This document shows positions 44,357 to 44,495 of a stretch of 64,000 nt of DNA, in pieces. The stretch lies in assembly GCF_964204645.1 (NCBI RefSeq), contig NC_134026.1:19782467-19846466 (forward strand), given 5' to 3'. Made by a program: the position numbers and the translations under genes. The stretch comes from Tubulanus polymorphus. Lineage: Eukaryota; Animalia; Nemertea. Each line of letters opens with the position of its first letter. Position 1 is the stretch's first letter. The notes under the pieces are model-generated. The model was not told the origin of the DNA and made no database searches. It worked only from the letters and a program-made list of their open reading frames with translations.

Positions 44357-44495
44357 TGTAATGGTTTTTTTTCGAATCCTCTTGATCGCCCACCGCGTCC
44401 TCGAACACCTCCACGCCCTCGCCCACGTCCACGTGCTCCCTGTTTTTGTCTGGTAGTCGTCGTACTGTCAATCGCATTTTGGATCAGATCATTTT
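44357..44495 (-). CDS. TEP1: TEP1-like exon encoding an RGG/RG-rich box
   Basis: Acceptor atatttcag| and donor CA|gtaagt. Peptide ...TTTTRQKQGARGRGRGRGGVRGRGGRSRGFEKKPL. Phase-consistent with both neighbouring exons. Confidence 0.55.

Follow-up and report, generated by a model that had tools for sequence, protein, structure and literature searches.

The RG/RGG-rich exon at 44357..44495 on the minus strand of the window (the whole 64,000-nt stretch of Tubulanus polymorphus DNA analysed here, to which all coordinates refer unless another locus is named) is a real coding exon of a TEP1 gene, most likely constitutive, whose product would complete the last helix of the TROVE domain and continue as a disordered RG/RGG tether to the vWA-like domain that follows. 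This exon, hereafter exon B, is 139 nt long, runs from phase 1 to phase 2, is preceded by the acceptor ggaatatttcag and followed by the donor gtaagt, and encodes QNDLIQNAIDSTTTTRQKQGARGRGRGRGGVRGRGGRSRGFEKKPL; in a 632-residue TROVE-vWA model of the gene product it corresponds to (Q)NDLIQNAIDSTTTTRQKQGARGRGRGRGGVRGRGGRSRGFEKKPL(Q), residues 327-372. Its 5′ part (44464..44495, minus strand) encodes QNDLIQNAIDS and follows the pattern Q-x-x-[LI]-[IV]-x-x-A, which was taken from an alignment of the window, the oyster homologue and three further loci (L001, L002 and L006). The RG/RGG tract itself, RGRGRGRGGVRGRGGRSRG (44377..44433, minus strand), contains seven RG dipeptides, among them two RGG set three residues apart by VRG. 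Thandapani et al. in 2013 reportedly defined a di-RGG motif as RGG(X0-4)RGG and a tri-RG motif as RG(X0-4)RG(X0-4)RG. Both patterns occur in RGRGRGRGGVRGRGGRSRG, which bears out the claim of the sequence-only reading that the exon encodes an RG/RGG motif.

Spliced from 39367..48428 on the minus strand, the TROVE and vWA-like part of the host gene comprised 15 exons with GT-AG borders that encode 632 amino acids without a stop codon. The Pfam TROVE model (PF05731) matched residues 3-406 of this product with an E-value of 3.3e-101, covering model positions 23-442 of 442, and exons A, B and C on their own were matched at 7.5e-12. DUF5920, a vWA-like domain, was recognized directly after TROVE, at residues 437-612 (1.6e-14). 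Residues 327-372 fall inside the Pfam TROVE envelope, as expected from the earlier placement of the exon within the TROVE module of a TEP1-type gene. When the intron-poor homologue L005, whose products carry the Pfam labels TROVE, DUF5920, DUF4062, NACHT-associated and WD40, was used as a tblastn query, the successive parts of the gene mapped, in order, to the minus strand between 48434 and ~14200, with the DUF4062 (TIR-like NADase), NACHT and WD40 parts extending from 38637 down to ~14200. This latter region was placed by tblastn alone, the full exon model covering 39367..48428, and WD40-like open stretches reach ~11000, beyond the tblastn support. The nearest database relatives were a Saccostrea cucullata 'telomerase component p80-like' protein (49-51% identity) and a Branchiostoma floridae 'telomerase protein component 1-like' protein (65% identity over the N-terminal half). 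With these TEP1/p80 relatives, at 49-65% identity, the window gene shares the domain order TROVE, vWA-like DUF5920, DUF4062, NACHT, WD40, the intron before the RG exon and the position of the RG tract. By homology, the gene is an invertebrate orthologue of TEP1 (telomerase protein component 1, p80-like). A 233-aa open stretch rich in Ser, Lys and Gly (49384..50082, minus strand) precedes the first TROVE exon and probably encodes a disordered TEP1 N-terminal region; the oyster homologue has a low-confidence N-terminus of ~280 residues.

Exon B is flanked by exon A (44663..44753, minus strand, 91 nt, donor gtaaga) and exon C (42902..43082, minus strand, 181 nt), with introns of 167 nt between A and B and of 1274 nt between B and C. 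Exon A encodes GAVTHSKQFPFRFFSAYEVLNSLEDEYGKN plus one base, its peptide ending in ...FPFRFFSAYEVLNSLEDEYGKN before that base, and contains the conserved TROVE motif FPFRFxSAY; exon C, preceded by atccatttccag and opening with AGAAAC, encodes (Q)ETKFDLSLIQRYRKALDTAVKIATTFNVKPIKG..., with which the vWA-like domain begins. Spliced together, with exon C beginning at 43082, the three exons read in frame through ...EYGKNQNDLIQNAIDSTTTTRQKQGARGRGRGRGGVRGRGGRSRGFEKKPLQETKFDLSLIQRYRKALDTAVKIA..., and this re-splicing reproduced in full the coordinates, splice sites and peptide that had been given for exon B. The splice sites of exon B conform to consensus and equal in quality those of 14 neighbouring exons, and the polypyrimidine tract upstream of it is short and interrupted by purines. 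No open stretch other than exon B reached five RG/GR dipeptides per 30 residues in any of the six frames across the 64-kb window. The tract is free of stop codons in each of the three minus-strand frames, which makes their absence by itself uninformative, and this openness speaks for a reading in which a GC-rich open intronic stretch has acquired splice-like edges by chance. We give that reading practically no credence, since the phase of exon B is correct with both neighbours, its splice sites are consensus, the exon is present in the annotated oyster protein, and residue-level homology to the oyster, L001, L002 and L006 includes the part without RG. As judged from splice sites, phase and homology in other species, exon B is a genuine conserved coding exon of the TEP1 orthologue, and the earlier statement that the exon is real holds.

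Several other explanations of the stretch were considered and discarded. Tandem Repeats Finder detected no repeat within exon B, and a DNA microsatellite origin of the RG tract was rejected because the exon holds no tandem repeat and its codons are mixed: over the entire exon, arginine is encoded by seven CGN and two AGA codons, and the glycine codons are mixed as well. Plus-strand ORFs across exon B were regarded as mechanical and unsupported, and a weak Pfam match to FoP_duplication (E = 0.064), below the cutoff, was attributed to composition. The intron between exons B and C carries a tandem repeat at 43403..44001 (154-nt unit, 3.9 copies, 76% matches; also described by a 306-nt unit present twice), which is probably a satellite-like or mobile-element insertion.

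We then worked out the genomic exon structure of the homologous region in the oyster (L013), L006/L009, amphioxus (L012), L002 and L001. An RG tract occurred at the matching protein position in the oyster, in amphioxus and in three invertebrate loci of environmental assemblies (L001, L002 and L006), and conservation in orthologues, which the sequence-only reading had put forward as its check, was thereby found. The intron before the RG exon agreed with that of the window in both position and phase in the oyster, amphioxus, L002 and L006. The RG exon measured 169 nt in the oyster (next exon cag/AGAGAC), 193 nt in L006/L009, from an environmental assembly (tag/AGAAAC), and 163 nt in amphioxus (cag/GGGTCT); like the 139-nt exon of the window (cag/AGAAAC), each of these leaves a remainder of one when divided by three. 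The RG exon of L002 measures 123 nt, with a remainder of zero, and its RG tract runs on into the next exon, which is itself fused to exon-C sequence. In L001 the exon-A and exon-B sequences are fused in one exon and the next exon opens cag/GTACCG, the intron between them being displaced downstream by three bases, to behind the Glu codon. Among the four single RG exons that of the window is the shortest, and it has no counterpart of the Trp-Trp/Lys-rich tail found in the oyster, L002 and L006. The Saccostrea cucullata p80-like protein aligned through exon B with an RG tract of its own (...EYETTQKKLVELAEMEASGISRSQVAPRGGRGRGRGRGRGGKGDNWW...KETAFDKAIINRYKKAL), and the start of the exon, which carries no RG, was conserved across the compared sequences (QNDLIQNAI, QEDIIQTAV, QKKLVELAE, QRSIVEAAM and QKDIIHEAE). 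In each species arginine was encoded by a mixture of CGN and AGR codons, in differing proportions and with the RG pattern retained, which argues for selection on the peptide and not on a DNA repeat. In L002, an (ATT)n microsatellite of ~190 nt (9440..9640 of that locus) lies in the intron that immediately precedes the RG exon.

In the amphioxus assembly (Branchiostoma floridae GCA_000003815.2, CM022888.1; L012 10001..26565), TEP1 is annotated as three gene models and is broken exactly at the RG exon. The first model, P0028 (656 aa), enters this exon through an internal acceptor, out of frame, and stops inside it (...AEWAGTWKRAWRRAWWWAWQG, then a stop codon); in the correct frame the exon reads SGRGRGRGRGGGRGGGRGRGRGRGGRGG and joins the next exon. 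The split looks like a gene-prediction error caused by the RG exon. For annotation, GC-rich RG exons can derail gene predictors, and exon B should stay in the gene model.

To place exon B in the fold we used an AF2 (AlphaFold) model of the oyster homologue P0013, with a 47-sequence alignment, and judged the window protein by homology. The predicted oyster helix 654-684 begins at FRFFSAY and crosses the exon A/B boundary at Q673, with pLDDT 92/83, and the RG tract R695-G708 is modelled with pLDDT 49-56 and no secondary structure; by homology to it, the window tract would share the disorder that belongs to the definition of RGG/RG regions. The next confidently predicted helix, 735-756, corresponds to ...INRYKKALDTAVKIA and is followed by the strand-helix pattern of a vWA-like domain; past residue 760, modelled strands and helices alternate and vWA folds were matched. 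Because the helix crosses the boundary and the RG tract is disordered in the oyster model, exon B is predicted to encode a helix end followed by a tether: its first ~12 residues complete the last TROVE helix in the model, and the rest is a disordered basic linker. The top structural matches of the oyster model were Ro60/TROVE structures, followed by vWA domains, and no TEP1 structure was found in the PDB copy searched. Ro60 (TROVE2) and bacterial Rsr share the TROVE helical ring and the vWA fold with TEP1 and, in contrast to it, have no NACHT/WD40 part; the sequence alignment with solved TROVE chains ends at the FPF..SA motif, with no counterpart of the RG linker aligned.

The linker was surveyed in an alignment of 120 listed homologues and was judged wherever both flanks were spanned. 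In nearly all such homologues, a basic low-complexity linker separates the FPFRFxSAY helix from the YRxALDxAVKI helix. Its composition varies: 14 sequences of the 120-protein alignment, the window included, have at least seven RG/GR dipeptides in the linker, these RG-rich versions (7-17 RG/GR) being those of the window, the oyster and a dozen more, many of them protist-like. One large group, which includes Acanthamoeba, has a Lys-rich linker, and sharks, fishes and mammals have a mixed Arg/Lys linker; in mammalian TEP1 it is Arg/Lys-rich, ~85 aa long and without RG repeats, whereas the window tract is RG-rich. A protein search with a mammalian TEP1 segment, aimed at annotated isoforms without the linker and counting only the database sequences returned as evidence, gave fragments only, with the linker present wherever it was covered, and no TEP1 relative beyond ~1100 aa was found among the matches returned from the protein collection. 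Very short linkers were seen in P0071 (17 aa) and P0035 (23 aa), and two fish models, P0130 and P0115, pass from ...MELHNLGEIQ straight into KLYTVDLLDRYRKAL, without the ~60-aa basic linker present in the fish models P0122 and P0124; this loss could be due either to in-frame exon skipping in fishes or to a prediction artefact. Because mammals, fishes and many protists have linkers that are not rich in RG, RG is not essential to the family, and the linkers of 17-23 aa together with the two linker-less fish models indicate that the fold tolerates loss of the tract. Given the near-universal basic linker, the RG exon is one lineage's version of it. A literature search for an RG/RGG linker in TEP1 or in the TROVE domain found no relevant paper. 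The gene family and the type of motif are already known; no mention was found of the recurrent RG-rich TROVE-vWA linker of TEP1/p80, which is a small biological point: among the relatives examined the linker is nearly always basic, and in several lineages it has become rich in RG/RGG.

The sequence-only reading had taken exon B for a possible cassette exon, on the grounds that the flanking exons stay in frame with or without it and that a cag/ag tandem acceptor at exon C restores the frame in either case. The acceptor region of exon C does read AGAG (43081..43084, minus strand; cag/AG/AAACC), with the first AG at 43084-43083 and the second at 43082-43081. Joining exon A directly to exon C at 43080 is in frame, as had been proposed, and to this extent the arithmetic is right. 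Joining A to C at 43082 shifts the frame and leads to a stop after 6 codons, and joining B to C at 43080, worked by hand, shifts it as well; inclusion with 43080 and skipping with 43082 are thus both out of frame, and the frame survives the loss of exon B only if the acceptor switches along with the skipping. This follows from the length of the exon, which at 139 nt is 1 mod 3, so that a 2-nt displacement of the next acceptor must accompany any productive skipping. The same length class was found in the oyster, L006 and amphioxus, only the L002 exon being symmetric. Acceptors are preferred in the order CAG and UAG, then AAG, then GAG, and GAG is rarely used; in the window, the first AG is the real acceptor and the second stands in a GAG context. 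The likeness to NAGNAG acceptors lies in the two adjoining AGs at one 3′ splice site. NAGNAG sites, with AGs 3 nt apart, keep the frame by themselves, whereas in ccAGAGaaa the AGs are spaced by 2 nt and a G precedes the second one, in the disfavoured GAG context, and at this 2-nt spacing a switch to the second AG, with nothing else changed, breaks the frame.

The codons at the junction account for the AGAG. The arrangement is xxA/GAA, the last base (A) of a Gln/Lys codon being followed by a GAA/GAG codon for Glu, and the Glu is retained both where no intron interrupts the site (SEVPYD in L002) and where the intron comes after it (EEVPYD in L001). The xxA/GAR arrangement is common to the window, L006 (tag/AGAAAC) and the oyster (cag/AGAGAC) and is absent in amphioxus. 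Since conserved intron phases and the Glu explain why the first three share it, their AGAG sites are not independent evidence; in amphioxus, which has equal intron positions but cag/GGGTCT, skipping of the exon yields a stop. In addition, ~5% of YAG sites on the minus strand are followed by AG, so that one such case is expected by chance in a gene with dozens of exons. As read from these codons, the AGAG where exon C begins results from coding and is not a regulatory device. Exon B is most likely included constitutively. The evidence, though short of decisive, goes against the cassette-exon signature that had been proposed: the exon length is not divisible by three, the second AG stands in a weak GAG context explained by the Glu codon, amphioxus has no second AG, L001 fuses exons A and B, and the exon carries the end of a confidently predicted TROVE helix.

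If exon B were a regulated cassette whose skipping is paired with use of the 43080 acceptor, the two products would be TEP1 carrying the RG arm and TEP1 lacking it. The frame arithmetic of such a cassette holds, the 1 mod 3 length and the AGAG at the next acceptor recur in the oyster and L006, the symmetric L002 exon (123 nt) could be skipped in frame, and the few homologues with very short linkers suggest that an RG-less protein could fold. We nevertheless consider it very unlikely, and we hold it more improbable still that a coupling of skipping to the 2-nt acceptor shift is a conserved feature of the window, L006 and the oyster; such a coupling would allow invertebrates to produce TEP1 in forms with and without the arm and would amount to a switch of RNA binding in the vault/telomerase scaffold. 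Such a cassette would need acceptor choice to depend on the identity of the upstream donor, and we know of no mechanism linking the two; the second AG is a GAG directly behind a CAG; conserved intron phases and the Glu codon produce the arrangement without any role in splicing; amphioxus has equal introns and no second AG, and L001 has exons A and B fused; skipping would remove the end of a confidently predicted helix; and no linker-less invertebrate transcript was found among the homologues of the 120-protein alignment. Human TEP1 has a shorter isoform without one in-frame exon, which was not used as evidence here. No sequence of the same species was found in the protein collection, and a 33-mer taken from exon A at its 3′ end had no match in a scan of metagenome contigs. 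A related possibility is that exon B is skipped without an acceptor shift, the early stop leading to transcript decay or to a truncated TROVE-only protein and thereby to control of dosage. The stop reached after 6 codons by A joined to C at 43082 fits this, as do the short polypyrimidine tract broken by purines and the truncated amphioxus model that ends in the RG exon, although the latter looks like a prediction error. Unproductive skipping nonetheless appears very unlikely to us, because the gtaagt donor is perfect, the 167-nt upstream intron favours recognition of the exon, and no positive sign of skipping was seen in any species examined.

With exon B taken as a constitutive exon, we propose that its disordered RG/RGG tract would tether the TROVE domain to the vWA-like domain and, as a positively charged flexible arm beside the TROVE ring, may add contacts that are not sequence-specific to the bound vault or telomerase RNA. 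The motif would also be a plausible substrate for arginine methyltransferases. Both suggestions, RNA contact and arginine methylation, are plausible by analogy with the general properties of RG/RGG tracts, and RNA contact also with the RNA binding reported for the TROVE region of TEP1. Disordered regions often contact RNA through RG/RGG tracts, which arginine methyltransferases modify by preference (PMC9718894, PMC12502372, PMC8141346); PMC12502372 also cites the classification of these motifs. The TROVE region of TEP1 is reported to show only limited sequence specificity in its binding of vault and telomerase RNAs (bioRxiv 10.64898/2026.09.21.753143). TEP1 has further been described as a STAND-type NADase that RNA binding might regulate via the TROVE region (bioRxiv 10.64898/2026.09.21.753143). 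Should the arm indeed contact vault or telomerase RNA, or undergo methylation, it would offer a handle on TEP1 RNA binding. What the tract has in common with RGG/RG proteins such as hnRNP U (RGG box), nucleolin and fibrillarin (GAR), FMRP and FUS is clustered repeats in a disordered region beside an RNA-binding module; it differs from them in being short (seven RG, two RGG) and an internal linker between folded domains, not a terminal tail, and its RNA binding and PRMT methylation are putative.

A less likely but serious alternative is that the linker of the constitutive exon mainly directs the protein to the nucleus or nucleolus, offers a docking site for other proteins (such as Tudor domains that bind methyl-arginine) or is simply a flexible spacer. 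Lys-rich, signal-like tracts occur in many homologues, for example KKNKQKEEKKKPK in the oyster and KKRVIIP in protist-like sequences, and GAR domains have an established role in driving localisation and contacts between proteins (PMC8521312). However, the linker directly adjoins the RNA-binding TROVE ring, and its positive charge throughout the family fits RNA contact at least as well.

Two further features of the window lie outside the modelled gene parts. Downstream of TEP1, an uninterrupted 330-aa ORF at 1993..2982 on the minus strand matches 7tm_1 (rhodopsin-family) over the full length of the model with an E-value of 3.2e-16, and is apparently an intronless GPCR gene. At 60200..62036 there is an AT-rich satellite composed of 20 copies of a 91-nt unit with 87% matches, made of TGTAATAAGC-like 10-mers, which explains why the GC content dips to 28% in that part of the window.
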